From Chloroflexota bacterium (GTDB lineage Bacteria; Chloroflexota; UBA11872; VXOZ01): a stretch of 64,000 bases of DNA. Where the stretch lies: positions 1,120,001 through 1,184,000 of the forward strand of contig OZ244922.1 of NCBI GenBank assembly GCA_965221905.1. The letters are read 5' to 3'. The notes under the pieces were generated by a model. That model was not told the origin of the DNA, searched no databases, and saw nothing but the letters and a program-made list of their open reading frames with translations. The translations under genes were made by a program, and so were the position numbers. Of this stretch, positions 2,158 to 64,000 are shown piece by piece. Every line of letters begins with the position of its first letter. The first letter of the stretch is position 1.

Positions 2158-3060
2158 TCATTTCCTGCTTTTTGAGCTTGGAACGGGAATACCGGTGGTG
2201 TTTAGGCGAATACGGTAGAGGCTCGTCCTGGCCGTGACGTAGAGCGTGCGCCAGTCCTTGTCGCCCCACGCAAGATTGGCGGGCTGCTCGTCGCCAATGA
2301 TTCTTCCCAGCACGTGACCTGCCGGATTCATCACCCAAATGCCGCCCGGCCCGGTGCAGAAGACATTTCCGTTGCAGTCTACCTTCATACCGTCCGGACT
2401 GCCGTCGTCAGCGCAGTTCATATCGGTCCACAGGCGGCTTTCGGTCAGCGTGCCATCGCTATTCACCGTAAACGCGCGGATGTGCCGCCGCCGACTATCG
2501 TCAATGTAGAGTGTCTTCTCGTCGGGGGAAAAGGCGAGACCGTTCGGCCGGTCGAAGTCGGCCGTCAAGAGGTGCAGCGCGCCGTCGGTAGTAATCATGT
2601 ACACGCCGCGGAAGCCCAGGTCCGGTTCAAGACCCAGGTCTTCGACGCCGTACGGCGGGTCGGTGAAATAGAGAGTGCCGTCGGAACGAACGACCACGTC
2701 GTTTGGGCTGTTGAGGTTTTTCCCCTGGTAGCTGTCGGCGAGGGAGCTGTACGAACCGTCGGCCTCTTGGCGGCTCACGCGCCGCGTGGAGTGTTCGCAC
2801 GAAATGAGACGCCCCTCGCCATCCAGGGTCAGGCCGTTCGCATTGCCCGAAGGCGTGCGATAGGTGCTCACGGAAAAACCTTCAGGCGATTCGCGCCAGC
2901 AAACGGTGCGGCTGTTGCGTATATCGCTAAACAGCAAACTGTTGTCCCGCCAAACAGGCCCCTCGGTGAATGCAAAGCCGCCCGCCACGCGCTCCAACGC
3001 CGCGGCTTGCGGTACGAGATCGAAGAACGCCGGGTTGCGAACGTCAAATCTGGTTGCCAT
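2158..3060 (-). CDS. SMP-30/gluconolactonase/LRE family protein
   Basis: FTEGPVW, NGLTLD, LNSPND, FTDPPYG, PNGLAFSPD and PDGMKVD motifs. Confidence 0.93.
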   Translation of the reverse strand: MATRFDVRNPAFFDLVPQAAALERVAGGFAFTEGPVWRDNSLLFSDIRNSRTVCWRESPEGFSVSTYRTPSGNANGLTLDGEGRLISCEHSTRRVSRQEADGSYSSLADSYQGKNLNSPNDVVVRSDGTLYFTDPPYGVEDLGLEPDLGFRGVYMITTDGALHLLTADFDRPNGLAFSPDEKTLYIDDSRRRHIRAFTVNSDGTLTESRLWTDMNCADDGSPDGMKVDCNGNVFCTGPGGIWVMNPAGHVLGRIIGDEQPANLAWGDKDWRTLYVTARTSLYRIRLNTTGIPVPSSKSRK

Positions 3061-3119
3061 GGTTCATTTCTCCAAGCTGGCGTATGCGAGCCAAGTTCTT
3101 CACAGCAGGTTCTTTGGGG

Positions 3120-4541
3120 TTAGCGTCGTCGAAACACGTGTACGGCGCGGCCGTCTACATCCCAGGAGGCCTCCATGATCGCCTCCGCAAGTGTGGGATG
3201 GGGATGGATATTGAGGCCGACCTCCAGAGGTGTTGCTTCCAGCATTTGTGCCAATCCCATTTCGGCGACAATGTCTGTGGCGTTGGGCCCGATGACGTGT
3301 GTGCCCAGAATTTCATCGGTCTTGGCGTCGCAGACCATCTTTACAAAGCCTTCGGTTTGCCCTTTTATGAGCGCTTTACCCAGCGCGGCAAAGGGGAACC
3401 GGCCTACTTTCACTTCCCTTCCCTGCTCGACGGCCTCTTCTTCCAAGAGACCGATGCTCGCGATCTCAGGACGGCAGTACGTGGCGCGTGGCACGCGCAA
3501 GGGGTCTAACGGGTGGGGCTCCTCACCGGCGAGGTGTTCGACGGCGACGTGCCCTTCGGCCGTGGCTTTGTGGGCGAGCAAGAAGCCGCCTGCAACGTCG
3601 CCGACGGCGTAGACGTGCGGTACGTTCGTGCGGCCATAACCGTCAACCGGGATGACGCCGCGCTCTGTATTTACGCCGATCGATTCAAGACCGATATCCT
3701 CAGTATTGCCGGTGCGACCGACGGCTACCAGCAGCACGTCAGCTTCCAGGGACTCCCTCTTGCCTGAAACCTCGATGTCCACTGATACGGAATTCTTGCC
3801 GGAATTCACGCTATCCACAATTAGCTTGGCGTTGGTCTTGACGGTGATGCCGCGCCGGTTAAACGAGCGGCCAAGCTCCTTGCCAATGTCCTCATCCTCC
3901 AGAGGAACCAATGTGGGCATGACCTCTACAACGGTCACCGCCACACCGAAGTCGTGGAAGAGACTCGCCCACTCAACGCCAACGGCCCCAGCGCCGAGAA
4001 TGATGACGGATTTTGGCAGCGTCGAGAGTTCAAGCGCGTGGTCGCTGCTAATCACGGTCTTGCCGTCAAGCTCCAGTCCCGGCAGGCTGCGCGGGCGTGA
4101 GCCGGTCGCGATGATGACGTTCGCCGCCCGCAGGTCTTGGGCGCCGGCGCTGCCCTCCACGCGCACCAGTTGGGGCGACGTGAGCGTTCCGGTCCCATAG
4201 AATACGTCAACCTTGTTTCTTTGCAGCAGACCCTGTACGCCTTTATGGAGTTGGGCTACCACCTGGGATTTGCGTGCAAGCACTTTGGCATAGTCAAAAG
4301 AAACGTCGGTGGCGACGACACCGAAGGCACCGCTCTCATTACGAGCGTGGTGCAGGTGCTCCGCGGACTCCAGCAGAGCCTTGGTAGGGATGCAGCCTTT
4401 GTGGAGGCAAATCCCGCCGACTTTCTCCTTTTCAACCACCGCGACCTTGAGCCCAAGCTGCGCGCCGCGAATAGCGGCCGGGTAGCCCCCCGGCCCGCCG
4501 CCGATAATTACAACGTCATATGTATTTTCTGCCATAGCCAC
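3120..4541 (-). CDS. lpdA: Dihydrolipoyl dehydrogenase (E3)
   Basis: GGGPGGY, GGICLHKGCIPTK redox disulfide, HPHPTLAE; downstream of E1/E2 genes. Alternative start ATG 4535. Confidence 0.96.
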   Translation of the reverse strand: MAMAENTYDVVIIGGGPGGYPAAIRGAQLGLKVAVVEKEKVGGICLHKGCIPTKALLESAEHLHHARNESGAFGVVATDVSFDYAKVLARKSQVVAQLHKGVQGLLQRNKVDVFYGTGTLTSPQLVRVEGSAGAQDLRAANVIIATGSRPRSLPGLELDGKTVISSDHALELSTLPKSVIILGAGAVGVEWASLFHDFGVAVTVVEVMPTLVPLEDEDIGKELGRSFNRRGITVKTNAKLIVDSVNSGKNSVSVDIEVSGKRESLEADVLLVAVGRTGNTEDIGLESIGVNTERGVIPVDGYGRTNVPHVYAVGDVAGGFLLAHKATAEGHVAVEHLAGEEPHPLDPLRVPRATYCRPEIASIGLLEEEAVEQGREVKVGRFPFAALGKALIKGQTEGFVKMVCDAKTDEILGTHVIGPNATDIVAEMGLAQMLEATPLEVGLNIHPHPTLAEAIMEASWDVDGRAVHVFRRR

Positions 4542-4657
4542 TTTCTTTCACGTGCTTCCGCCTGCCTGCGGGCGGTGCTCGCACCTTTAGCGATCAATAG
4601 GGTGTAACGTAATGCACACTGACTCCATCTTGCCGAAAGCACGGCCTGGGATTCAAA

Positions 4658-4683
4658 TAGGGCGAACCCTCAGTTCGCCCTAC
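4658..4683. repeat. GTAG-type REP-like hairpin between pdhC and lpdA
   Basis: TAGGGCGAAC-CCTCA-GTTCGCCCTAC inverted repeat ending in CTAC. Confidence 0.65.
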
Positions 4684-4715
4684 GCATTGGCGAAGGAAGT
4701 GAAGCGGCAAGCTTC

Positions 4716-5954
4716 TTAGCCCAGTAAGTTGTACGGATTTTCCAAGAGATCCTTCAAGTCGCGCAGAAACTCAGCGGCGGGGGCACCGTAGAGGATGCGG
4801 TGATCGGCGGAGATGCTTAGGTTCATCATGTCGCGCACTACGATTTCTCCTTCGCGCACGACGGGCCGCGGCTCAATCGTGCCGACGGCAATTATGCCGG
4901 CCTGGGGCGGATTCACGATGGCATAGAAGTCGCGCACGCCAAACATGCCCAGATTCGAGACCGTAAAAGTGCCGCCCTCTAAGTCGCCGGGCCGGTTCTT
5001 GCCTTCGCGGGTGCGCTCAACCAGCACTTTCGCTTCCGCAGCCAGCCGGCGGAGAGGCTTGGTGTCGCAGTTCTTGAGCACGGGAACTAGCAAGCCATTG
5101 GGTACGGCAACGGCAATGCCAATATTCGCCTCATCATGATAGACAAAACCGCCATCTCGGTAGGAGCCGTTTGCATCCGGATGCCGCATGAGAGCGAGCG
5201 CGGTGGCTCTGATGATGATGTCGTTGAAGCTAATCCGTTCTTCCTTGCTCCAGGCGGAATTGACCTGCGCGCGCATTTCTTTGGCGGCGCCCATGTCGAT
5301 TTCCAGCGTTAGGTAGAAGTGCGGCACTGTGGTCTTGCTCTCAAGCATTCGCCGGACAATTGTGGACTGCATGCGTGAGAGCGATGCCACTTCAGAGGAA
5401 CTTGGTTCGGCGGCGGGGTCGTCAGCCACTGCGGCATTGCGTACCGCGTTCTCAACGTCTTCCTTGACAATGCGGCCGCTGGGGCCGGTGCCTTTGACCT
5501 GCAGTAGGTCGATTCCCTCTTCGGCGGCAATGCGGCGCGCGAGCGGTGACGCCTTGATGCGGCCGGATGCCTCTTTCGCGTTCGAACCGTCTGCGGGCCG
5601 CGAAGCGGGCGCAGGCTTTGTTTGGGTACTGCCGTCTGACCCGGCAACGCTTGGCTGTACAGTTTCTGTCGCCGGCGCGTTCTGTGGCGGAACGGCAATC
5701 TGCTTGCCCAACTCGCTTTCATCGCCCACCAGCGCAATAGGAGCGCCCAAGGGGGCCGCGCCGCCCTCAGCAACGAGAAGTTCGAGCAGCGTACCTTCCT
5801 CAACCGACTCGAGTTCCATCACGGCTTTATCGGTCTCGATTTCGGCCAGTAACTCGCCCTTCTTTACGCTGTCACCCACCTGCTTGTACCACTGCAGGAC
5901 TCTTCCCTCTTCCATCGTATCGCTCAGGCGGGGCATAGGGATCTCGCGTACCAT
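4716..5954 (-). CDS. pdhC: Pyruvate dehydrogenase E2, dihydrolipoamide acetyltransferase (one lipoyl domain)
   Basis: Lipoyl ETDKA, E3-binding ASPLARRIA..GTGPSGRIVKED, catalytic DHRILYG. Confidence 0.93.
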   Translation of the reverse strand: MVREIPMPRLSDTMEEGRVLQWYKQVGDSVKKGELLAEIETDKAVMELESVEEGTLLELLVAEGGAAPLGAPIALVGDESELGKQIAVPPQNAPATETVQPSVAGSDGSTQTKPAPASRPADGSNAKEASGRIKASPLARRIAAEEGIDLLQVKGTGPSGRIVKEDVENAVRNAAVADDPAAEPSSSEVASLSRMQSTIVRRMLESKTTVPHFYLTLEIDMGAAKEMRAQVNSAWSKEERISFNDIIIRATALALMRHPDANGSYRDGGFVYHDEANIGIAVAVPNGLLVPVLKNCDTKPLRRLAAEAKVLVERTREGKNRPGDLEGGTFTVSNLGMFGVRDFYAIVNPPQAGIIAVGTIEPRPVVREGEIVVRDMMNLSISADHRILYGAPAAEFLRDLKDLLENPYNLLG

Positions 5955-44228: not shown

Positions 44229-44539
44229 GCGGGGGACAAGCCCCCGCGCTACGGCAGGAAGTGCCGCACATTCCGTTATGCCCGCGATCTCTGTCCGTCA
44301 CTCGCGTCATCAATCCGTCATTCCCGCTCGCGCGGGAATTAATCTTCCCATTAGCGCAAGTAGCGCAAGTTTACGCACCCTTCTTGGCTAGAGCTTAGGA
44401 ATTCCTGGATTCCGGCTTGCACCGGAATTACGGGATGAGCGCATGAGTTAAGGAGCAGTCGGTGACACTTTAGACAAAGCAAGCCGAGGGCGATCGGAAA
44501 GCCCTCTACTGGGGGAGAGGGTTTGGGTGAGGGCGACTG
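44229..44539. repeat. Mixed REP cluster between the duplicated dehydrogenases
   Basis: GCGGGGGACAAGCCCCCGCGCTAC (44229-44252), CGTC-type elements (~44315-44340, 44405-44433), CCCTCT..GGGAGAGGGTTTGGGTGAGGG (44502-44539). Confidence 0.8.
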
Positions 44540-54341: not shown

Positions 54342-55481
54342 TTACACATAGTGCAGCAGCGTATTCGTCACGCGTTTGAAGACTTGAATTGCCCGCTGTG
54401 CTCCCAAGTGCTTGCCCGCGGTGCCGTTGTTGATTTCGTAGAATGCGTGTGGCACTCCAAGGCGTTTGGCGAATTGGTAACAGAGCGTGTTGGGTTGGTG
54501 GATGCTGGCGCGCTCGTGGGTGGAGGGACCGTCGGTCTCCAGGCGCATCGTATCGCATAGTGCCGTGTAGAGCCGACGCTGGTCGGCGTTATCGTAGAGC
54601 GTGTAGTCTGCTACCTCGTACCAGCCGTCGTAGGGATACTCGCTGTTGAGCCGCCAGCCGGTAAAGCAGTGGAAATTCATCCAGAGCGCGGGCTTTTCCG
54701 TGGCTACCCAGTTCCAGAGTAGGCGGCTTTCGTGGGCCTCCGGTAGTGCGGCATCGGGATTGTCGCCAAAGGCCTGGTACATGTCGAACCCCTCGGCATT
54801 GAAAGCGTTGCGGCCCAGCACGTTGCCGTCCGGATTCACCATGGGCACGACGAACACCTCAAGCTCACTGCGGAGCGCCTCTGCCTCAGGCAACGCCGAA
54901 GAGATGAAGTCGGCAATGCCGAATACGCCCCATACGCCGGCGTGCTCGTGGGGATGCTGACCGGCCACGCAGAAGAGTTTCGGCTTGCCCGGCGTGCCTG
55001 CGCGCAGTCCGAGAATATCTCGTCCCTGTACGGTCGTGCCCACCGAAAAGAGCGAGCAGCGGTCGGCGCGCGCTGCCGCAAATTCGCGCAGGAGCGCGGC
55101 GACCTCGCTGTACGGCGCGACGTAGGTCATAGCGACGCGCACGTCCTGGTCTTCTTCCACGGGTACCGTGAAGGTTATGTGACCCTCACTACTGGCGGGC
55201 GGCGTGCCCGGCAAAGGCCGGTAGCGATGAAAGTCCACCGGCTTGAACCAAATCGTCGTGGGGAAGAGCGTGCGGAAGCCGGTGGGCTTTCCGAACTTTG
55301 CATCTTCCCAGAGCTCGATTGTCACGTCCGCGGCTGGCCCTTCGTTGATGATGTCGAAGCAGAAGTAGGCGCAGTAGCCGCTCTGCTTATCGCCGTCAAC
55401 TTGCAAGCGGAAGTGGGCCGGCCCCACTTGCTCGATTGCCTTGCCGTTGCCGCACTCGACCTTGCTTGTGATTCTAATCAT
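54342..55481 (-). CDS. M14 zinc-carboxypeptidase-like protein
   Basis: ECGN N-domain, GQHPHE (HxxE), VPMVNPDG, HESR, NFH, C-terminal FYE; AAGGAG RBS before ATG 55481. Confidence 0.82.
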   Translation of the reverse strand: MIRITSKVECGNGKAIEQVGPAHFRLQVDGDKQSGYCAYFCFDIINEGPAADVTIELWEDAKFGKPTGFRTLFPTTIWFKPVDFHRYRPLPGTPPASSEGHITFTVPVEEDQDVRVAMTYVAPYSEVAALLREFAAARADRCSLFSVGTTVQGRDILGLRAGTPGKPKLFCVAGQHPHEHAGVWGVFGIADFISSALPEAEALRSELEVFVVPMVNPDGNVLGRNAFNAEGFDMYQAFGDNPDAALPEAHESRLLWNWVATEKPALWMNFHCFTGWRLNSEYPYDGWYEVADYTLYDNADQRRLYTALCDTMRLETDGPSTHERASIHQPNTLCYQFAKRLGVPHAFYEINNGTAGKHLGAQRAIQVFKRVTNTLLHYV

Positions 55482-55826
55482 GTGATGCTCCTTGGCTTCA
55501 GGTGTTCTATGGCGCTTGTGCTTGCCTATTTCACGTCGGTGCTCATCAGTGTACGGCATACGGAGGGTAATCGACCATTGGTCGTTGAGGAATGGAAAGT
55601 GCTCGACGGAGCAAGACGCGCTTGGGAGGTCTTCCGAATTGGTCGCATCGTATCTTGCGATGTGGTTGCAGCCTGAGTAAGGTGGTAGTGACAAGCCCCG
55701 GAAATGCCATGTGCGAATGCGATGTCTTGCGGAGGCAGTTTGAGCGCTTCAGGGGCCAAACGGTCAGAATAGCGAAGAGTCTGGGCATTGGCATCGGCGC
55801 TCCGACCCAAAGACAGAGATCATCAA

Positions 55827-56483
55827 ATGTTGCGTATCGAACACATCCAGAACCCAAACAGGCTATGGGCGTTTCCGGTGATCGGCGGCGCCATCAAGCT
55901 CTTGATCGTGATTCCGGTGAGTATCTGGCTGTTGTTCGTAGATATCGCCGCAATTGTCCTCAGCATCATCAACGGGTTTGTTGTGCTCTTTACCGGCAAG
56001 TACTGGGAGCCTGCCTATGCTCTCGCCGTGGGTTCGATGCGGCTCACGGCCAAAGCCAACTGCTTCTTTCTCGGCCTCAGCGATGCGTACCCTGGATTTT
56101 CGCTCGAATCTAGCGACGAGATACGGCTTGAATTTGCGATGCCGACCCAGCCGAACCGCTTACTTGCGCTGCCATTGGTTGGTGGAATCTTCCGGTTTGC
56201 CGTACTCGTCCCCTTTTTCATCTTCCTATTTGTAATCGGACTTCTGGTCGTGCTCGTGTACTGGTTCACCTGGATTCCCGTGCTCCTCATAGGCCGGTAT
56301 CCTGAAGGTCTCTTCAATCTCATGGTATATTCGCAGCGGCTCCAACTTAGGCTTTCTGCCTTTACGTTCGGACTTTCGGACACCTATCCGCTGTTCGACG
56401 AAGAAGGACTTGGCCCGGATGAGTGGGGTCCTGGGAGGCATGATAGAGTTTACCGGCCTCTTGGGCCAGAGACCTTCCGGTAA
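55827..56483 (+). CDS. DUF4389 membrane protein (internally duplicated)
   Basis: Two repeats PNRL.A.P..GG...VL..G(K/R)Y.....GLSD.YP.F. Confidence 0.8.
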   Translation: MLRIEHIQNPNRLWAFPVIGGAIKLLIVIPVSIWLLFVDIAAIVLSIINGFVVLFTGKYWEPAYALAVGSMRLTAKANCFFLGLSDAYPGFSLESSDEIRLEFAMPTQPNRLLALPLVGGIFRFAVLVPFFIFLFVIGLLVVLVYWFTWIPVLLIGRYPEGLFNLMVYSQRLQLRLSAFTFGLSDTYPLFDEEGLGPDEWGPGRHDRVYRPLGPETFR

Positions 56484-56631
56484 TTTGCTTTTACGTTAGC
56501 TACTGTGGCTTAGAAGTCTTCTCACACCTCTACTAGCTGTAAGCGCGCCTACGCTCGTGCAAAGCCAATGCAAGTTGCACAGCGGCTGTTCCCTTTGCAT
56601 GCTATAGATTCAAGAATATTTTGTCTGAGCA

Positions 56632-56886
56632 GTGGCAATGAGAGACTCATTGGTGTTTGAATCCAGAATCTTTACTGGCGGTCGAACGACGCTGCCTAGG
56701 GCAGTGCGCGATGCCCTCGGCCTGCAGACTGGCGATCGGGTGCGCTATGTCGTCCTGGAAAGTGAAGTGCGGATCATCAAGGTCCGCTCAATCGGCCGTT
56801 TGTACGGCGTGCTGCAGCATCACGGCCCGGCCGTTACCCTGGAGGAGTTAGAATGTGCCATCAAAGCTAGGGCAATTGAGGCGTAG
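56632..56886 (+). CDS. AbrB/MazE/SpoVT-family DNA-binding protein (antitoxin-like)
   Basis: SRI..GRTTLPRAVRDALGLQTGDRVRY swapped-hairpin motif; C-terminal LYGVL..VTLEE as in VapB-type antitoxins. Confidence 0.8.
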   Translation: MAMRDSLVFESRIFTGGRTTLPRAVRDALGLQTGDRVRYVVLESEVRIIKVRSIGRLYGVLQHHGPAVTLEELECAIKARAIEA

Positions 56887-56949
56887 TCGCTCTATGTGCA
56901 GTCAGCTCGCCTGTTACTGTTTGACATGGCTTTGGCGGAGTGCAATGTA

Positions 56950-58215
56950 ATGCTTGCTCTCGACAAGTTGGACGGTGCGGAGATTGGGCGTTATCTGGCG
57001 TCGCAGGGCGTGCTGCGAATTGATGCTCAACTGACAGTTGAAGCGCTGGGCGGCGGTGTCTCGAATATTGTGCTCAAAGTCACGACACCGACACAGTGTT
57101 TGGTGCTCAAGCAGGCGCTGCCTGAACTGCGGGTGGCGGCGTATTGGCCGTCCCGCATTGACCGCGCGGTGCGTGAGGCTGAGGCGCTGCGTGTCGTATC
57201 AGGGCACTTACCGTCCGGGGCCGTGCCGACGGTCCATTTCATCGATGAGGAGAATTACATCTACGGCATGTCGTGCGCGCCTGATTCGGCGACGCTCTGG
57301 AAGGAAGATCTGCTCGCGGGAGAGGTGGAATTGCCGGTGGCAGCGGCGGCGGGCCGCATGCTGGCACAGATGCACGCCATACAGGATCCGGCGGTGCGGG
57401 AGCGGTTCATCAATGACGAAGTCTTCTGGCAGTTGCGGGTCGATCCGTACTACAACACCATTGCGGAGAAGTATCCGTCGGTGAAGCCGGTGGTTGCGCG
57501 GGCAATCGCGCAAATGAAGGCGCGGAAGCTGGCGCTGGTGCACGGGGACTATAGTCCGAAGAATATGTTTGTATTACGCGAGAAGATGGATTCCCGCGCA
57601 AGCGGGAATGACGGACAGAGAAGGTCGGCGGAATGCAGCACTATTTCGAGTACGGGGCAAGCGTTACGTGAGAGTGACGGAAAAGGAGCCGCGGTAGATA
57701 CCCACTCGCGCGGAAACACGGCGGGCCAGACAACACCGCGGGAGACAACAAGGGCAGTGACTCCTAGCGCAGGTTGCAAACCTACGCTACCGGAAGAGAC
57801 CGCCTCACTGCCCAGCAGTGACGGCAGCCATGCGGGATCTATCCTCCTGCTCGACTTCGAGGTGGTGCACTGGGGCGATCCGGCGTTTGACCTGGCCTTT
57901 TGCGTCAATCACCTGCTCATCAAGTCAATCGTCAATGCGCATGTTCAAACGGCGTACTTCCAGGCAGTTACGGCAATGCTGGAAGCATATTGTAACGAAC
58001 TGCCGGCAATAGACTGGGCAGAGTTGCTGGCGGAGACACGGCTCCAGCTTGGCTGTCTTATGCTGGCGCGCATCGATGGCAAGTCACCCGTCGAGTACAT
58101 TACGGACGAACCGACCAAAGAAACCGTGCGGCGCGTGAGCCGTTTCATTCTGCACGAACAGTCTGCAACGATTTCCGACATATACGCGTGTATTGCGCGG
58201 GAGGCGGCGCACTAA
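56950..58215 (+). CDS. APH/methylthioribose-kinase-like phosphotransferase with a large internal insertion
   Basis: [55 protein letters not shown] open from 56896; GGAG RBS favours ATG 56950. Confidence 0.85.
57574..57840 (+). repeat. In-frame REP-derived insertion within the kinase gene
   Basis: TGGATTCCCGCGCAAGCGGGAATGACGG (57587-57614) and CTAGCGCAGGTTGCAAACCTACGCTACC (57764-57791), plus degenerate copies. Confidence 0.85.
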
Positions 58216-59624
58216 TGCGATCCAGGCAGATGGATTCCCGTTTTCATGGGAATGACAGAACTAAACGCGGGAATGACAAAGCTAAACCCTCGGCGACGAT
58301 TAGGCGCGTGCACGCCAGAGAGGTGCTTGACTCGCGGGGCGTGCCGACGGTGGAAGTGGACGTAACGCTCTCGAGCGGCGCGCGCGGTCGTACTATCGTG
58401 CCCTCCGGCGCTTCCACCGGACGACACGAGGCTCTGGAGTTTCGTGACGGCGATTCTGCCCGCTATCAAGGTAAAGGTGTGCGCCACGCCGTGCGCCACG
58501 TGAACGAGGTGCTCGGCCCAGCAGTGTTTGGAATGGACGCTATACGTCAGCACGAGGTCGACGCTCTGCTCCTGGATACGGACGGCACCCTCAACCTGCG
58601 CCGTTTGGGGGGCAATGCAATTCTTGGTGTTTCGTTGGCAACGGCCCACGCGGCGGCAGAGAGCCTCGGTCTCCCACTCTACCGCTATCTGGGTGGCAGC
58701 CTGGCACGTGAGTTGCCGGTGCCTATGGTGAACATCCTCAGCGGCGGACTGCACGCGAGGGGCATCGTTGACTTTCAGGATTTTCTCCTAATTCCCGTGG
58801 GCGCCCAGAGCTTCAGCGACGCGCTGGTGATGGTGCGCAACGTCTACTACGCCATGGGTGAAATCCTGGCGGATCGCGGCGCAAGCACATTGGTCGCTGA
58901 CGAAGGCGGATACGGCCCAGCCGTGGATACGGTTGAAGGCGCAGCCGGTGCAAATAATGCCGTGTTCGCTGCAAACGAGGCTGCAGTGCGGCTCTTGGTG
59001 CAAGCGATAGAAAGAGCCGGGTACCGTCCGGGGGAAGACGCGGCAATCGGTCTCGACGTGGCGGCGACCCATTTCTATAGCGACGGCCTGTATCACCTGC
59101 ACGCCGAGGATCGAAAACTCTCCAGCGAGGAGATGGTGTCGCTGCTCGCGCAGTGGGTCGATGACTACCCGATTATTTCGATTGAAGACGGTCTGGCGGA
59201 AGATGACTGGGACGGCTGGCAAGCACTAACGACGCGCTTAGGTGAGCGGGTCCAACTCATCGGCGACGATCTCTTTGTTACGAACGTGCAGCGTTTACAA
59301 GAGGGCATTGATAGGCGTGCGGCAAACGCCGTGCTCGTCAAGGTGAACCAAGTCGGCACGTTGACGGCTGCGGTAGCCACACTGCGCTTGGCCTGCGCAC
59401 ATGGGTATCTGGCTGTGGTGTCCGCCCGCTCGGGAGAGACCGAGGACGCGACCATCGCCGACCTAGCGGTGGGCACCAATGCTGGTCAGATCAAGATCGG
59501 CTCGATCACGCGCTCGGAGCGGCTGGCGAAGTACAACCAACTGCTGCGTATCGAGGAAGAACTGGGCGCGCAGGGCGTGTATCGCGGGCGCGACGTCTTT
59601 CGCCGGTTTCTTGGTGAGTCCTAA
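58215..59624 (+). CDS. eno: Enolase-family protein with variant active site
   Basis: [59 protein letters not shown]; start overlaps the kinase stop (TAATG). Confidence 0.85.
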
Positions 59625-59696
59625 CTTTCCCTGCCAACCGGCCTGCTCCTACGGGTTTTATGCCAGGCAGCAAACCATTAGGAGACCTTTGGGAAT

Positions 59697-59898
59697 CTCC
59701 TTCCCCCTTTGATGTGGGAGGGTTGAGACGGGGGTGATTGAGTCTCTTGGGCAAGTCACAACGCACTACCCCTCCCCTGGATTCCGGCTTTCGCCGGAAT
59801 GACGAATCTAGGCAACGGTTTCCTAGGGGAGAGAGCGACTATAAATTTCATTTTTCTTCTACCGTTCGCCTTGAGCCTGTCGAAAGGTGAACGGTAGA
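59697..59898. repeat. Mixed REP cluster between convergent genes
   Basis: Degenerate CCCTCC-type element, CTGGATTCCGGCTTTCGCCGGAATGACG (59777-59804), TCTACCGTTCGCCTTGAGCCTGTCGAAAGGTGAACGGTAGA (59858-59898). Confidence 0.8.
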
Positions 59899-59938
59899 CT
59901 TATTCAAAGTAAGAACTACAATTCACTTGAGCTACGAT

Positions 59939-61894
59939 CTATTGGTCTTGGATAACCCATATGGGGCTTGACCAGGCCTGTGCCACACGGCCCGCCACAG
60001 GATCTTTCTGCCACAGCCGCACATAGTAGAGCGCGTTAGCAACCGGCTGCGGATCGTCCCAGGTGAACGCGCACTCAGCCGCTTGCGGCTCTTGGCGGTA
60101 GACCACCTCGAAGCGCTGAGCGTCCAGATCGCCGCGCAGGATTTCGATCCAGGCGATCTCGTCCGTGCCGACAGCCCAAACGCGTACCGTCACGCCATTG
60201 CCGCTGGCGGTCTCTTGCCCCATGAACGTATCGTTCACCCACACTTTGAGTAGAATGCGCGCCCCGGTAGTGCCGTAGGTCTGGCGGTTGTGGATGCTAT
60301 CAAAGATGCTGCTGCGCGTAAGCGCGGGCGCCCAGACTGCCGCGAGACCGGTCTGCCGCTTACCCGGCTGCGCTTGATGATTGTCCGATGAACAGATCGT
60401 GCCCATGCGCTGTCCCGCGAGCCAGCCGTCTTGCGCGTAATGGGGGCCCCGGGCAGAGTCATTGAGCGAGAAGTCGCAATGTTGGTACGCCAAGGGATGA
60501 TCCGGATCGTAGTACTCGCAGAGGCCGTGGCCGGAGTACACCTCGACGACCCGGCGGAAGGCGTCGTTGGCGTACTGCCAATCAATGTTCGGGCCGGTGC
60601 CGCCGGGCAGGTTGCTCGCCTTTGGTGAAAAGCGCACGCCGGTGTGATGAGGTATCGTCATTGCCTCTCCGGGTACCAGTTGCCGCCACAAGTCTTGCAC
60701 TGTGCCGTTGTGCGCGCCGATGCGCACATCGCCGTCTTCGCGGAAATACACGTCATGGTGCGCCCACGGCGACTGGAAGGTGGCTTCATAGCCGAGAATT
60801 GTGGCAAATCGTCCTGGATCGTACCAATCGTGAGTCGCGAGCCGGATCTCCTCCCACATCTCGTCTGACAATTGCTCCACGTGGTCGGTGAGGGCGTAGA
60901 AGTCGAGGCGCGCCACGTCCCGCGCGTAGTGGAAGGGCAGGTCGCCGGTAGCATCGAAGCTGCGTCGCGCGTGGGAATGGAGATCTCCCCAGAAGACGCG
61001 CTCTTCAGGCAGGTCAGCAGCGCAGAGGGCCGGGTTCGACTGCGCTCCAAATGCTTTTTTACCGTTCGCCCTGAGCCTGTCGAAGGGTGCCTGTGACTCT
61101 GCGATGGCGGTGAACTCTAAACGCAGAACGCCGGGTGCAGTTGGCGTAAACGGCACCACACACCGGCCTGTGTCCGGATTAAGCGAGACGGTCTCGGGGC
61201 AGTCCGCGTGGCCTTCTGCGACTGTTACCGCAAACGTGAGACGCACAGAGGTGGCGGCATTCTGCCAGGAATCCAGCGCGATGACGTGGCACGCTGCTTC
61301 ATGGCCGACGCGGGCATGAGAGGGGGCATATGCCACGATCTCCGCCGGTGCCGCTGCCTGGGTTACGAGGAGGGGACTTTCCACTTCAGGGAACACGTCC
61401 TTTCCCCCACCAATTTCAGCGGAAAGCAAGGCGATGCGGACGGGTTCCGGGCCGTTGGGATGCAGCGCGGCGGTGAAGCCGGGGCTGCCGCCACTGGTAT
61501 CGCCGTATGCGATATCTATCCAGTCGCCGGCCCGCAGTACGCCTTTAGTCACCGTCACCTCAGTATGGTACGCGCACCGGTTGGGAGGCCCGGCTAGAGC
61601 ATCCCGCGTACGCTTCTCGTACTCCTCGGTCGAGCCCTCGGGTACGGTGCAGCGGATTTCCACGTTGTTGCGGGAGGCGCGGGCGGAGACGTAGTTGGGG
61701 CTCGCGGGATCAAGGCTGTGCACGCCTTTTGCCGAGTTGCGCAGCCAGGCGTGCCAGGTGTTGGGTAATGCCACGGCAATCGTGTCACCGGAACCGAGTT
61801 CTCCCTCGGCAATAGTGCACCGCACGACCCAGGTGCCGTACTCGCCGGCCGTGCCTACCGATGGTGTCACTGAAACGCGTATGCGTGGAGTCAT
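59939..61894 (-). CDS. DUF3604 / PHP-like metallohydrolase domain protein
   Basis: FWGDLHSH, LDFYALTDH, GYE, TIPHH, VEVYSGHG, SSDNH, TYGTTGARI, YYVRL.Q..AWSSPIW. Confidence 0.85.
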   Translation of the reverse strand: MTPRIRVSVTPSVGTAGEYGTWVVRCTIAEGELGSGDTIAVALPNTWHAWLRNSAKGVHSLDPASPNYVSARASRNNVEIRCTVPEGSTEEYEKRTRDALAGPPNRCAYHTEVTVTKGVLRAGDWIDIAYGDTSGGSPGFTAALHPNGPEPVRIALLSAEIGGGKDVFPEVESPLLVTQAAAPAEIVAYAPSHARVGHEAACHVIALDSWQNAATSVRLTFAVTVAEGHADCPETVSLNPDTGRCVVPFTPTAPGVLRLEFTAIAESQAPFDRLRANGKKAFGAQSNPALCAADLPEERVFWGDLHSHARRSFDATGDLPFHYARDVARLDFYALTDHVEQLSDEMWEEIRLATHDWYDPGRFATILGYEATFQSPWAHHDVYFREDGDVRIGAHNGTVQDLWRQLVPGEAMTIPHHTGVRFSPKASNLPGGTGPNIDWQYANDAFRRVVEVYSGHGLCEYYDPDHPLAYQHCDFSLNDSARGPHYAQDGWLAGQRMGTICSSDNHQAQPGKRQTGLAAVWAPALTRSSIFDSIHNRQTYGTTGARILLKVWVNDTFMGQETASGNGVTVRVWAVGTDEIAWIEILRGDLDAQRFEVVYRQEPQAAECAFTWDDPQPVANALYYVRLWQKDPVAGRVAQAWSSPIWVIQDQ

Positions 61895-62364: not shown

Positions 62365-64000
62365 ATGAGTGACGATGCGAACGTGGACGTCAAACGGTTT
62401 AGCAAAGACATAACTGTAGGGCCGAAAAGCGCGCCCGCGCGATCTATGTTTCACGCTATGGGATTCAGCAGCGAGGATCTGGCGAAGCCCCTCATCGGCG
62501 TCGCGAGCACGTGGAATGAGGTCACGCCCTGCAACTACCACTTGGATCGCCTGGCCCAGAAGGTGAAGGAAGGTGTCCGCGCAGCCGGAGGCACGCCGAT
62601 TGAGTTCGTTGCGATCACCGTAAGCGACGGCATTGCCATGGGCACGGAGGGTATGCGCACAAGCCTGGTGACGCGCGAGATCATAGCGGATTCGATTGAG
62701 GCGGTGGCAATTGGCGAGCGGTTGGATGGTGTGGTTTGCATTGCCGGCTGCGATAAGAGCTTGCCGGGCTGCGCGATGGCCATGGCACGTCTCAACATCC
62801 CCAGCGTCTTCGTGTACGGCGGCAGCATCATGCCGGGGCGCTGGCAGGGCAAGGACGTAACCATCCAGGACGTCTTCGAGGCCGTGGGTGCCCACGCCGC
62901 CGGAAACTTGAGCGAAGACGAACTGACCGACCTTGAGTTGCACGCCTGCCCCGGCCCGGGCTCGTGCGGCGGTATGTACACGGCAAATACCATGTCGAGC
63001 GCGCTGGAAGCTATGGGGCTCTCGGTACCCGGCAGTGCTTCACCCCCGGCAATGGACGAACGCCGCGATCAGGTGTGCGTGGATGCCGGACATCTGGTGA
63101 TGGATTGCGTGCGAAACAACCGTCGCCCGTCTGACATCATTACAAAAGAGTCGTTAGAGAATGCCGTTTCCGTCGCGCTCGCTGCCGGTGGCTCCACCAA
63201 CGCAGCGCTCCACTTGCCCGCCATCGCCTGGGAAGCGGACATTCCGTTCGATCTCGACGACATTGACCGCGTGAGCAAGCGCGTGCCCCACATCGCTGAC
63301 ATGCGTCCCGGCGGCAGATACGTGATGGCCGACTTGGACAGGGTGGGCGGCGTGCCGCTCATCATGCAGAACCTGCTGCGGGCCGGACTGCTGCACGGCG
63401 ATTGCCTCACGGTCACGGGAAATACGCTCGCAACCGACGTGGCAGGCGCGCAAGTCAACGCGAACGGTCAGGACATCGTGCGGTCGGTGGACGATCCGAT
63501 CTATGCTGGCGGCACCATGGTCATTTTGCGCGGGAACCTAGCGCCGGAGGGCGCGGTGGTAAAGGTAGCGGGAGTGGCCAATCGCGTGCATTCCGGCCCG
63601 GCGCGGGTGTACGAAATCGAGGACGACGCCTTCAATGCCGTAGTGAAAGGCCACATCAACCCGGGCGACGTGATCGTGATTCGAAATGAGGGCCCGAAAG
63701 GCGGGCCGGGCATGCGCGAGATGCTGGCCGTGACCGGCGCGGTCTTTGGCTGCGGCCTGGGCGATTCCGTGGGTCTCATCACCGATGGACGTTTCTCCGG
63801 CGCGACCCACGGCATGATGGTGGGCCACGTCGCGCCCGAGGCCGCCATGGGCGGCCCCATCGGCCTGATCCAGGAAGGCGACAAGATTACGATAGACGGC
63901 GACAACCAAGAATTGACGCTGCACGTTGACGATGCCGAGTTGGCAGAACGCCGCAAGCACTGGCAGCCCCTCGAACCGCGCTACAAGAGAGGCGTGCTAG
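62365..64000 (+). CDS. ilvD: Dihydroxy-acid dehydratase (partial, runs off the window; absent from the ORF track)
   Basis: Own translation from ATG 62365 (AGAGGAG RBS): [61 protein letters not shown]. Confidence 0.96.

Follow-up and report, generated by a model that had tools for sequence, protein, structure and literature searches.

The stretch of Chloroflexota DNA analysed here, 64,000 nucleotides long (GenBank assembly GCA_965221905.1, contig OZ244922.1, positions 1,120,001 to 1,184,000; hereafter the window, with positions counted from its first letter), encodes a small-molecule kinase that is directly followed by a paralogue of enolase. It is very probable, in our view, that these two genes constitute a functional pair and that the enolase homologue is not the glycolytic enzyme. 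The evidence comes from the presence of a second, canonical enolase gene (eno) in the genome, from a set of residue changes that is fixed across a widespread clade of such paralogues, and from the persistent association of this clade with the kinase. The pair is made up of the following elements.

56950-58215, plus strand: MtnK-like, APH-fold small-molecule kinase (PF01636), 421 residues counted from the ATG at 56950
58215-59624, plus strand: enolase-family paralogue of the "SARSGE" clade (PF03952, PF00113, TIGR01060), 469 residues
58213-58217, plus strand: TAATG stop/start overlap of kinase and enolase (TAA 58213-58215, ATG 58215-58217)

A second enolase in a clade of its own

Both enolase domains are recognized in the window protein (PF03952, E 1.6e-54; PF00113, E 3e-103), which scores 580-582 bits on the model TIGR01060, against a cut-off of 300, and matches the enolase of Chloroflexus aurantiacus (PDB 4yws) with an E-value of 1e-149. 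Enolase proper is generally regarded as a family with a single function, whose members are all named "phosphopyruvate hydratase" by annotation pipelines. The 3.52-Mb single-contig genome, however, contains two matches to TIGR01060, the window gene (580 bits) and a canonical copy at C1:2720662-2721918 (650 bits) that reads SHRSGE, FQEFM, NILNGG and GDEGG. The window gene is thus not the sole enolase of the organism, a point on which the initial annotation, with its proposal of a non-glycolytic role, depended. The same arrangement recurs in the five other genomes with the cassette that were compared in this way (from Acidobacteriota, an Opitutales metagenome-assembled genome (MAG), an Anaerolineae MAG and an unclassified MAG), each with a canonical copy at 637-692 bits and a lower-scoring, kinase-linked copy at 431-582 bits; altogether, the canonical eno is retained in all 11 cassette genomes searched for enolases. 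Across 121 Chloroflexota genomes of at least 90% completeness, canonical copies score 624-698 bits and the second copies form a distinct set at about 450-580 bits.

Phylogenetic analysis places the two kinds of enolase apart. The variants, 141 non-identical sequences gathered through kinase loci or the SARSGE motif, and 34 canonical sequences, a taxonomically narrow set drawn from the same genomes and from Chloroflexota, part at a single branch of the unrooted tree (175 rows; FastTree local support 100), and the same split is recovered with 36 variant and 14 canonical representatives (IQ-TREE, SH-aLRT 100). The window enolase lies on the variant side of this fully supported branch, so that the SARSGE/QDF enolases do form a clade against the canonical sequences, as would be expected if the initial proposal is correct. 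The variants span 13 named phyla, namely Acidobacteriota, Chloroflexota, Planctomycetota, Actinomycetota, Pseudomonadota, Verrucomicrobiota, Bacteroidota, Armatimonadota, Bacillota, Myxococcota, Rhodothermota, Thermomicrobiota and Ca. Sumerlaeota, and cultured carriers are found in Singulisphaera sp. GP187, Actinomycetospora sp. CA-101289 and Cohnella phaseoli CECT 7287. The window protein has the signature of the clade, S-A-R-S-G-E, Q-D, S-G-G and I-K-(V/I)-G, together with the adjacent partner kinase; as it lacks both the invariant E168/H373 set and orthology to the canonical enzyme, it should not be filed as eno.

Retained and replaced residues of the variant enolase

Residue numbers and roles are carried over from yeast enolase, an equivalence that we assume to hold for the proteins compared here. 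The relevant segments of the window protein are as follows.

58734-58757 and 58773-58787, plus strand: ILSGGLHA and FQDFL, with the changes N155S, E168D and M170L; H159 and Q167 retained
58896-58913, plus strand: ADEGGY, with G209A; E211 retained
58920-58967, plus strand: 16-residue stretch with a 14-residue insertion, seen as a gap of 14 against PDB 4yws
59046-59072, plus strand: IGLDVAATH; metal ligand D246 retained, E251H
59337-59351, plus strand: VKVNQ; catalytic base K345 retained (K in 141/141 variants)
59418-59438, plus strand: VSARSGE, with H373A; R374 and S375 retained
59484-59501, plus strand: GQIKIG; K396 retained, T397I

The initial annotation had read SARSGE, QDFL, ILSGG, ADEGG and VKVNQ in this protein, with the magnesium ligands and the catalytic lysine and glutamate retained, and every detail of that reading is correct; the canonical motifs that it set beside them (SHRSGE, FQEFM, NGG and GDEGG) are indeed those of the second enolase of this genome and of all 34 canonical sequences compared. 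The window enolase has the complete catalytic set, comprising the metal ligands D246, E295 and D320, the base K345, E211, Q167 and K396, and R374, S375, S39 and H159. At the canonical-invariant positions E168, H373, N155 and T397 it has D, A, S and I.

The same division between retained and replaced positions runs through the whole clade. H159, Q167, E211, D246, E295, D320, K345, R374, S375 and K396 are each retained in 141 of 141 variants and S39 in 139. By contrast, aspartate replaces E168 in all 141 (canonical E in 34/34), and H373 is alanine in 140 and glycine in the remaining one (canonical H in 34/34). N155 has become serine in 136 and glycine in 5 (canonical N in 34/34), and T397 is valine in 74 and isoleucine in 67, that is, changed in 141 of 141 (canonical T in 32/34). 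Less strictly, G209A is found in 126 of the 141 variants against an invariant glycine in the canonical sequences, M170L/Q in 121, and position 251 holds histidine in 106, glutamine in 19 and the canonical glutamate (E in 34/34) in only 9. The clade-wide N155S and T397V/I and the frequent E251H extend the list of changes beyond those that had been noticed at first.

On these counts, full constraint acts on the machinery that binds the two metals, the carboxylate and the C2 phosphate and that abstracts the C2 proton. The changed residues (E168, H373, N155, T397) are those which we take to face C3 and the leaving hydroxyl, as in the structures of yeast enolase, and the patch around C3 and the leaving group thus appears to be fixed in a different, smaller and more hydrophobic state. 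In the yeast enzyme, changes of E168 cost about five orders of magnitude and changes of H373 are harmful too.

The 14-residue insertion after ADEGGYGP was considered as a further mark of the clade and discarded, being specific to a lineage: the spacing from E211 to D246 is 51 in 10 variants and 37 in 106 variants and in the 30 canonical sequences measured. Separately, four highly divergent genes of the enolase family, at about 285-310 bits, are present in one Chloroflexota genome (G042; 91% complete, 7% contamination), which gave no canonical match. The one examined (L247, on G042:C86) retains D246, E295, D320 and K345 and is without H159, Q167, E211, H373, R374 and K396, and represents another, different departure from enolase.

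The partner kinase

The kinase is assigned to PF01636 (E 6e-16, 59 bits against a cut-off of 23) and is present as a single copy in the genome. Its open reading frame (ORF) is open from a GTG at 56896, and the ATG at 56950 is the start common to its relatives (MLALDK...). In profile searches the nearest relatives of known structure are methylthioribose (MTR) kinases, 2pyw (1e-19) and 2olc (4e-18), followed by 4-hydroxytryptamine kinase (4e-15) and, as a weak relative, the ACAD10/11-type APH domain 3dxp (2.5e-7), with aminoglycoside, macrolide and corramycin phosphotransferases among the weak relatives. The motifs expected of an active kinase are found at these positions.

57049-57066, plus strand: G-loop, GGGVSN
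57103-57120, plus strand: ATP-lysine region, VLKQAL
57541-57564, plus strand: catalytic loop, HGDYSPKN
57847-57891 and 58066-58098, plus strand: further catalytic motifs

An LLDFE metal-site motif is also present, and its key positions are invariant in 23 relatives. In these 23 kinases, which come from several phyla, the GGxS G-loop, the ATP lysine, the helix-C glutamate, HGD..PKN, DxE and ARxDGxSPxEY are invariant, as are several arginines and lysines, and the protein accordingly looks catalytically competent as far as its motifs can tell. An assignment as MtnK was rejected, the score on TIGR01767 being 50 bits against a cut-off of 275 and confined to the N-lobe. Likewise, a Pfam search of the kinase gave no match to the glycerate-kinase families (PF02595; MOFRL, PF05161/PF13660). 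The genome has a separate homologue of the MOFRL glycerate 2-kinase at C1:1106383, and no PF02595 glycerate kinase was found in it. The kinase family is large, with 1404 representative clusters at E <=1e-30 among 1.84 billion representatives, and bears generic names only, such as "phosphotransferase family protein" in the ESM Atlas.

Linkage, co-occurrence and fusion

The association was followed in both directions. Of the 73 loci located through the kinase, 65 have an enolase homologue that follows it closely in the same orientation; three of the other eight have less than 520 nt of downstream sequence, and five have 5 kb with no enolase. Where the best high-scoring segment pairs reach the motif, it reads SARSGET in 58 of 59 and SGRSGET in one, and never SHRSGE. 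From the enolase side, a DNA pattern for SARSGETED....DLA retrieved at least 120 stretches, all of them in enolase homologues; among the matches listed, the kinase is directly upstream in 75 of the 89 assessable loci (75 of at least 120 loci) and elsewhere in the locus in 3, and 31 loci have too little flank. Three ORFs directly 5' of unlinked enolases (in L176, L183 and L202) were considered and set aside, since they have no Pfam match and look spurious.

Where the two genes have come apart, the partner is still found. In five of five genomes tested that have an unlinked enolase, the kinase is encoded elsewhere (342-387 bits), and in five of five with an unlinked kinase, a set that includes the unpublished genomes G134 and G135, the variant enolase is encoded elsewhere, one of these enolases being partial. 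The 121 Chloroflexota genomes comprise 14 with the adjacent pair, one with the kinase only, one with the enolase and a kinase remnant, and 105 with neither, a tally that is a description and not a statistical test, as the genomes are related to one another. Decay is apparent in a few lineages: G079 (C39, L244) combines a variant enolase with a kinase remnant of only 49 residues, and among the 14 genomes with the adjacent pair, the enolase of G061 (C1:374652-376942) has an internal TAA and that of G028 (C1:419592-421848) is split in two frames. Since G079 and G061 belong to the same genus, both partners show decay in that genus.

Among the long relatives of the kinase (at least 663 residues, E <=1e-20; n=12), 10 are kinase-enolase fusions and 2 are fusions of an FGGY kinase with the kinase. 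A search of representative sequences adds the kinase-enolase fusions P0065 and P0150, for 12 clusters in all, and a third FGGY fusion, P0038; P0150 and a cluster mate are seen on 6 contigs. The fused enolases have the variant signature (SGRSGE/QDF/SGG in P0065, SARSGE/QDY in P0150). In a locus from Ca. Acidiferrales (L249), an FGGY-kinase fusion is followed directly by a SARSGE enolase, and in the locus L250, an FGGY gene 63% identical to that of L249 is followed by an IlvD/Edd dehydratase instead. Conserved linkage, co-occurrence and fusion together give strong support to functional coupling, and the expected co-occurrence with this kinase family is borne out, whether the two are adjacent, encoded at separate places in one genome or fused. 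A complex prediction for an Acidobacteriota enolase and kinase gave a score of 0.00 and points neither way.

Two further gene arrangements were observed. A protein of 641 residues seen on one contig (P0140) joins a PEP-hydrolase-like TIM-barrel domain (PF09370) to the kinase, and the tie of such a domain to an enol-phosphate product is at most suggestive. In L249, a separate APH kinase gene adjoins an acyl-CoA dehydrogenase gene (together at 2384-4820, minus strand) upstream of the fusion and the variant enolase, an arrangement that looks like an unfused bacterial counterpart of ACAD10/11. For these FGGY and PEP-hydrolase-like fusion domains, no homologue was found in this genome or in the other loci searched.

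Junction, insertions and neighbouring genes in the window

Stop and start of the two genes overlap exactly as first described, with a GGGAGG about 10 nt 5' of the enolase ATG. The translational coupling that had been deduced from this overlap holds for the lineage of the window, where a T(A/G)ATG overlap is kept in 10 of 13 close relatives with a measurable junction (of 14 such loci). In the family as a whole it is tight only in part: of the 82 junctions that could be measured, 39 show an overlap or a gap of at most 20 nt. The nearest relatives, at 92-94% identity, have the same kinase-enolase layout. A GTG at 58308 (V32) was rejected as an alternative start of the enolase, as it would leave just three residues before the conserved REVLDSRG strand. 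A promoter and terminator scan of 56300-60000 gave nothing above chance.

Repeat-derived sequence has entered both genes, at the following positions.

57577-57840, plus strand: low-complexity in-frame insert of about 85 residues in the kinase, between the catalytic loop and the DFE metal-binding motif
57590-57609: REP-like (repetitive extragenic palindromic) hairpin ATTCCCGC-GCAA-GCGGGAAT within the kinase insert
58215-58292, plus strand: N-terminal extension of 26 residues in the enolase, a degenerate copy of the repeat, with enolase homology starting at residue 27

The window and all 14 close Chloroflexota relatives have the kinase insert, which varies in length and never breaks the frame, and in the same alignment it is absent from Acidobacteriota, an Opitutales MAG and more distant Chloroflexota and Anaerolineae. 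The hairpin core ATTCCCGC-GNRA-GCGGGAAT (ATTCCCG..CGGGAAT) is present in 44 copies in the 3.52-Mb genome. Of the flanking ATGGATTCCCG, one strand has 26 copies and the other 35, where about 0.85 would be expected on each; the total of 61 compares with an expectation of about 1.7. In the kinase and in the N-terminus of the enolase, the repeat is read through in frame, as peptides of the kind KMDSR..GNDG, and the distance from the kinase stop to the first conserved enolase motif varies from 80 to 462 nt among close relatives. With the repeat-derived kinase insert and enolase extension taken into account, the stop/start overlap exists only in this Chloroflexota lineage. Palindromic elements are known to insert into coding genes of other bacteria in much the same way. 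A second copy of the hairpin core (ATTCCCGCTCGCGCGGGAAT) is found at window position 44320.

One gene directly 5' of the pair recurs in the relatives.

56632-56886, plus strand: AbrB/MazE-like gene, 84 residues (PF04014, E 6e-7), ending 63 nt before the kinase ATG

Nine of the 14 close Chloroflexota loci have this gene directly 5' of the kinase, and it was found there in none of the other loci searched. It has no toxin gene as a neighbour; it could be an orphan antitoxin or regulate the pair in this lineage, in either case outside the conserved pair. Farther 5' are an M14 carboxypeptidase-like gene (54342-55694, minus strand) and a gene for a DUF4389 membrane protein (55788-56483, plus strand), whose synteny is limited to close relatives and which are unlinked to the pair elsewhere. 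On the 3' side, a DUF3604/CehA-type metallohydrolase gene (59939-61894, minus strand) lies between the pair and a canonical dihydroxy-acid dehydratase gene, ilvD, which starts at 62434, 2.8 kb downstream of the pair, runs past the window end at 64000 and scores 741 bits on TIGR00110. A second IlvD/Edd homologue with a lower score is located at C1:1307655.

Gene context in other genomes

Neighbourhoods were clustered for 73 and 80 loci, together with the same-strand flanking genes of 193 loci, and no third gene conserved across phyla emerged from these clustered neighbourhoods, so that context does not name the substrate. The neighbours that recur are listed here.

D-2-hydroxyacid dehydrogenase: 5 Actinomycetota loci
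PanE/ApbA reductase: 3 Pseudomonadota loci
Ldh_2 dehydrogenase, matching the L-sulfolactate dehydrogenase model below its cut-off: 2 loci
MR/MLE dehydratase, scoring as cis-3-hydroxy-L-proline dehydratase: 5 loci
SDR: 6 loci
IlvD/Edd, FAH and aldehyde dehydrogenase: 3 Nanopelagicaceae loci

As a group, they fit some 2-oxo or 2,3-dihydroxy acid without naming one.

Possible reaction of the pair and alternative explanations

Mechanistically, the window protein probably works like an enolase. We lean, with modest confidence, towards a sequence of phosphorylation followed by elimination on a substrate other than 2-phosphoglycerate (2-PG), in keeping with the pattern of retained and replaced residues. 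The kinase would act on a glycerate-like acid whose C3 is not a plain CH2OH, and would place the phosphate on its 2-hydroxyl. Such an acid could be a 2,3-dihydroxy acid whose substituent at C3 is larger or more hydrophobic, or else a 2-hydroxy acid substituted at C3. The paralogue would then remove the C2 proton via K345 and eliminate the C3 group via E211, yielding an enol phosphate (an analogue of phosphoenolpyruvate (PEP), or PEP itself), whose phosphate might be passed back to ADP or hydrolysed. Overall, ATP would prime the dehydration of a 2,3-dihydroxy acid to a 2-oxo-3-deoxy acid with no iron-sulfur cluster involved, in a reaction alongside glycolysis and separate from it. The proposal made at the outset, that the kinase product is a longer or branched 2-phospho-acid dehydrated in an enlarged C3 pocket, may be correct as an interpretation of the changed residues; taken one at a time, however, none of the possible substrates is better than an unlikely guess. 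The genome already has a MOFRL glycerate 2-kinase homologue and a canonical eno, which argues that the pair does not serve plain glycerate handling.

Several observations weigh against this scheme. E211, the acid for the hydroxyl leaving group, is retained, so that the chemistry could still be the dehydration of 2-PG, and the placing of the changed residues on the C3 side relies on the structures of yeast enolase. The association of the two genes has exceptions: among the matches listed, 11 of the 89 assessable enolase loci are without the kinase despite at least 1.3 kb of upstream sequence, and G036 has a kinase without the variant enolase. The recurrent neighbours are heterogeneous and lineage-bound, and a 2-oxoacid reductase beside the pair fits the conversion of hydroxypyruvate to D-glycerate equally well. 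Finally, with variants gathered by motif or kinase linkage and canonical sequences coming mostly from Chloroflexota, the comparison of the two groups is not a blind sample.

A more specific version of the phosphorylation-elimination scheme, which we put forward tentatively and regard as doubtful, is that the pair serves as an iron-sulfur-free, ATP-primed substitute for dehydratases of the IlvD/Edd type. Its substrate would be a branched-chain precursor such as 2,3-dihydroxyisovalerate, a deoxy- or phospho-aldonate, or a tetronate, and the resulting substituted phosphoenol acid would give up its 2-oxo acid through pyruvate kinase or a phosphatase. If true, this would be the first case of a second reaction specificity within the enolase family proper, in at least 13 phyla. 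Should the substrate instead be D-glycerate, the kinase would be a third, APH-fold type of D-glycerate 2-kinase and the paralogue an enolase isozyme converting 2-PG to PEP, together forming a private lower branch for glycerate or hydroxypyruvate from the breakdown of serine, glyoxylate or sugar acids. Such a role agrees with the retention of all catalytic, metal, phosphate and carboxylate residues, with the 582 bits on an equivalog model of enolase, with the 2-oxoacid reductases of three unrelated families that adjoin the pair in different phyla, and with the sugar-acid genes (MR/MLE, IlvD/Edd, FAH, aldehyde dehydrogenase) near it in some loci. We nevertheless consider it improbable: E168D and H373A are fixed (141/141 and 140/141) where the canonical E and H are invariant, changes of the same residues are damaging in yeast enolase, each of the 11 cassette genomes keeps a canonical eno, with a MOFRL kinase in addition in the present one, and a sole use on 2-PG would leave the distinct, conserved pocket unexplained.

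The changed residues surround, by analogy with yeast enolase, the C3 hydroxyl and its water, and they might instead have adapted to another leaving group. The substrate would in that case be a 2-hydroxy acid whose C3 bears a group other than hydroxyl, such as 3-sulfolactate, or 3-phosphoglycerate by way of 2,3-bisphosphoglycerate, from which sulfite or phosphate would be eliminated to give PEP itself. The frequent E251H, which adds a potential cationic or acid group, and the Ldh_2 dehydrogenase that adjoins the pair in two loci, with its sub-cut-off match to the L-sulfolactate dehydrogenase model, are in line with this idea, and a combination of an APH kinase with an eliminating enzyme is described for ACAD10/11 (PMC12440821, PMC11342911). 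On the other hand, no recurrent sulfite exporter or oxidase, sulfonate transporter or related gene was seen near the pair in the clustered loci, T397V/I, M170L and H373A make the pocket more hydrophobic and ill-suited to an anionic leaving group, and a route from 3-phosphoglycerate through the bisphosphate to PEP would waste ATP beside an intact glycolysis; we regard a different leaving group as distinctly improbable. Least probable is a non-metabolic function, in which the kinase would inactivate or sense a small molecule, such as an antibiotic, and the enolase copy would be drug-insensitive, or non-catalytic and regulatory. APH is the classic fold of antibiotic kinases, antibiotic phosphotransferases are among the weak relatives, and natural inhibitors of enolase exist; the nearest relatives of the kinase, however, are metabolite kinases (for MTR and 4-hydroxytryptamine, and of the ACAD10/11 type), the paralogue retains a complete catalytic set, the pair, which is widespread and lies on the chromosome, stands by itself outside any mobile or resistance context, and fusion into one polypeptide suits consecutive enzymes better.

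Whatever the substrate, enolase homologues with a different pocket and an obligate kinase partner make up a sharply defined clade that extends over many phyla of soil and fresh water. Should the acid on which the pair acts not be 2-PG, the enolase is mis-annotated in thousands of genomes, which would also possess an overlooked route for turning a hydroxy acid into a high-energy enol phosphate. For re-annotation, the fixed residue changes offer a ready sequence rule, and the cultured carriers make the question of the substrate directly testable.

Comparison with known systems

A search of the full-text literature, which left out about 1.7 million PMC articles and the subscription journals, turned up no paper on an enolase paralogue linked to an APH/MtnK-like kinase and, likewise, none on a sulfolactate kinase/enolase route or on products of the phosphoenolbutyrate type. 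The components themselves have well-known counterparts. Glycolytic enolase (EC 4.2.1.11) belongs to the same two-domain family and shares with the window paralogue the metal ligands, K345, E211, K396, Q167, R374, S375, S39 and H159. The paralogue differs in falling into a separate clade with fixed E168D, H373A, N155S and T397V/I, in being tied to a kinase gene, and in accompanying a canonical eno, as an additional copy, in every one of the 11 genomes checked. MtnK (2olc, 2pyw; TIGR01767) shares with the kinase the N-lobe pattern of G-loop, KQALP and WP...R as well as the HGD catalytic loop, whereas the kinase has invariant motifs of its own (HGDYSPKN, DFEVxHxGDPxFD and ARxDGxSPxEY) and is linked to the enolase paralogue instead of methionine-salvage genes.

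As a two-step system, the pair most resembles in its proposed logic the combination of glycerate 2-kinase (GK-I, PF02595, or GK-II, MOFRL, PF05161) with enolase, in which phosphorylation of a 2-hydroxyl is followed by dehydration to an enol phosphate and which forms the lower branch of the non-phosphorylative Entner-Doudoroff, serine-cycle and tartrate/glyoxylate routes. In contrast to that combination, the kinase belongs to neither glycerate-kinase family and its enolase partner has an altered C3 pocket. In ACAD10 and ACAD11, according to two reports (PMC12440821, PMC11342911), an APH-type kinase domain is fused to an eliminating acyl-CoA dehydrogenase domain. The likeness consists in the coupling of an APH-fold kinase to an enzyme that removes an alpha-proton and eliminates; the difference is that in those proteins it is the phosphate itself that leaves, from an acyl-CoA substrate. 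In the present pair, the phosphate site conserved in the enolase suggests that the phosphate stays on C2.

The dehydratases of the IlvD/Edd family bring about the same net change as is proposed for the pair, from a 2,3-dihydroxy acid to a 2-oxo-3-deoxy acid, with an unrelated fold, in dependence on an iron-sulfur cluster and without ATP. Their association with the pair, through the ilvD of the window, the three Nanopelagicaceae loci and the FGGY genes of L249 and L250, is anecdotal. Within the enolase family, lastly, the homologue PhpH acts as carboxyphosphonoenolpyruvate synthase in the biosynthesis of phosphinothricin tripeptide; the change there concerns the group on O2, not C3, and the gene lies in an antibiotic cluster, but PhpH provides a precedent for an enolase-family enzyme that accepts a 2-substituted glycerate beyond 2-PG.

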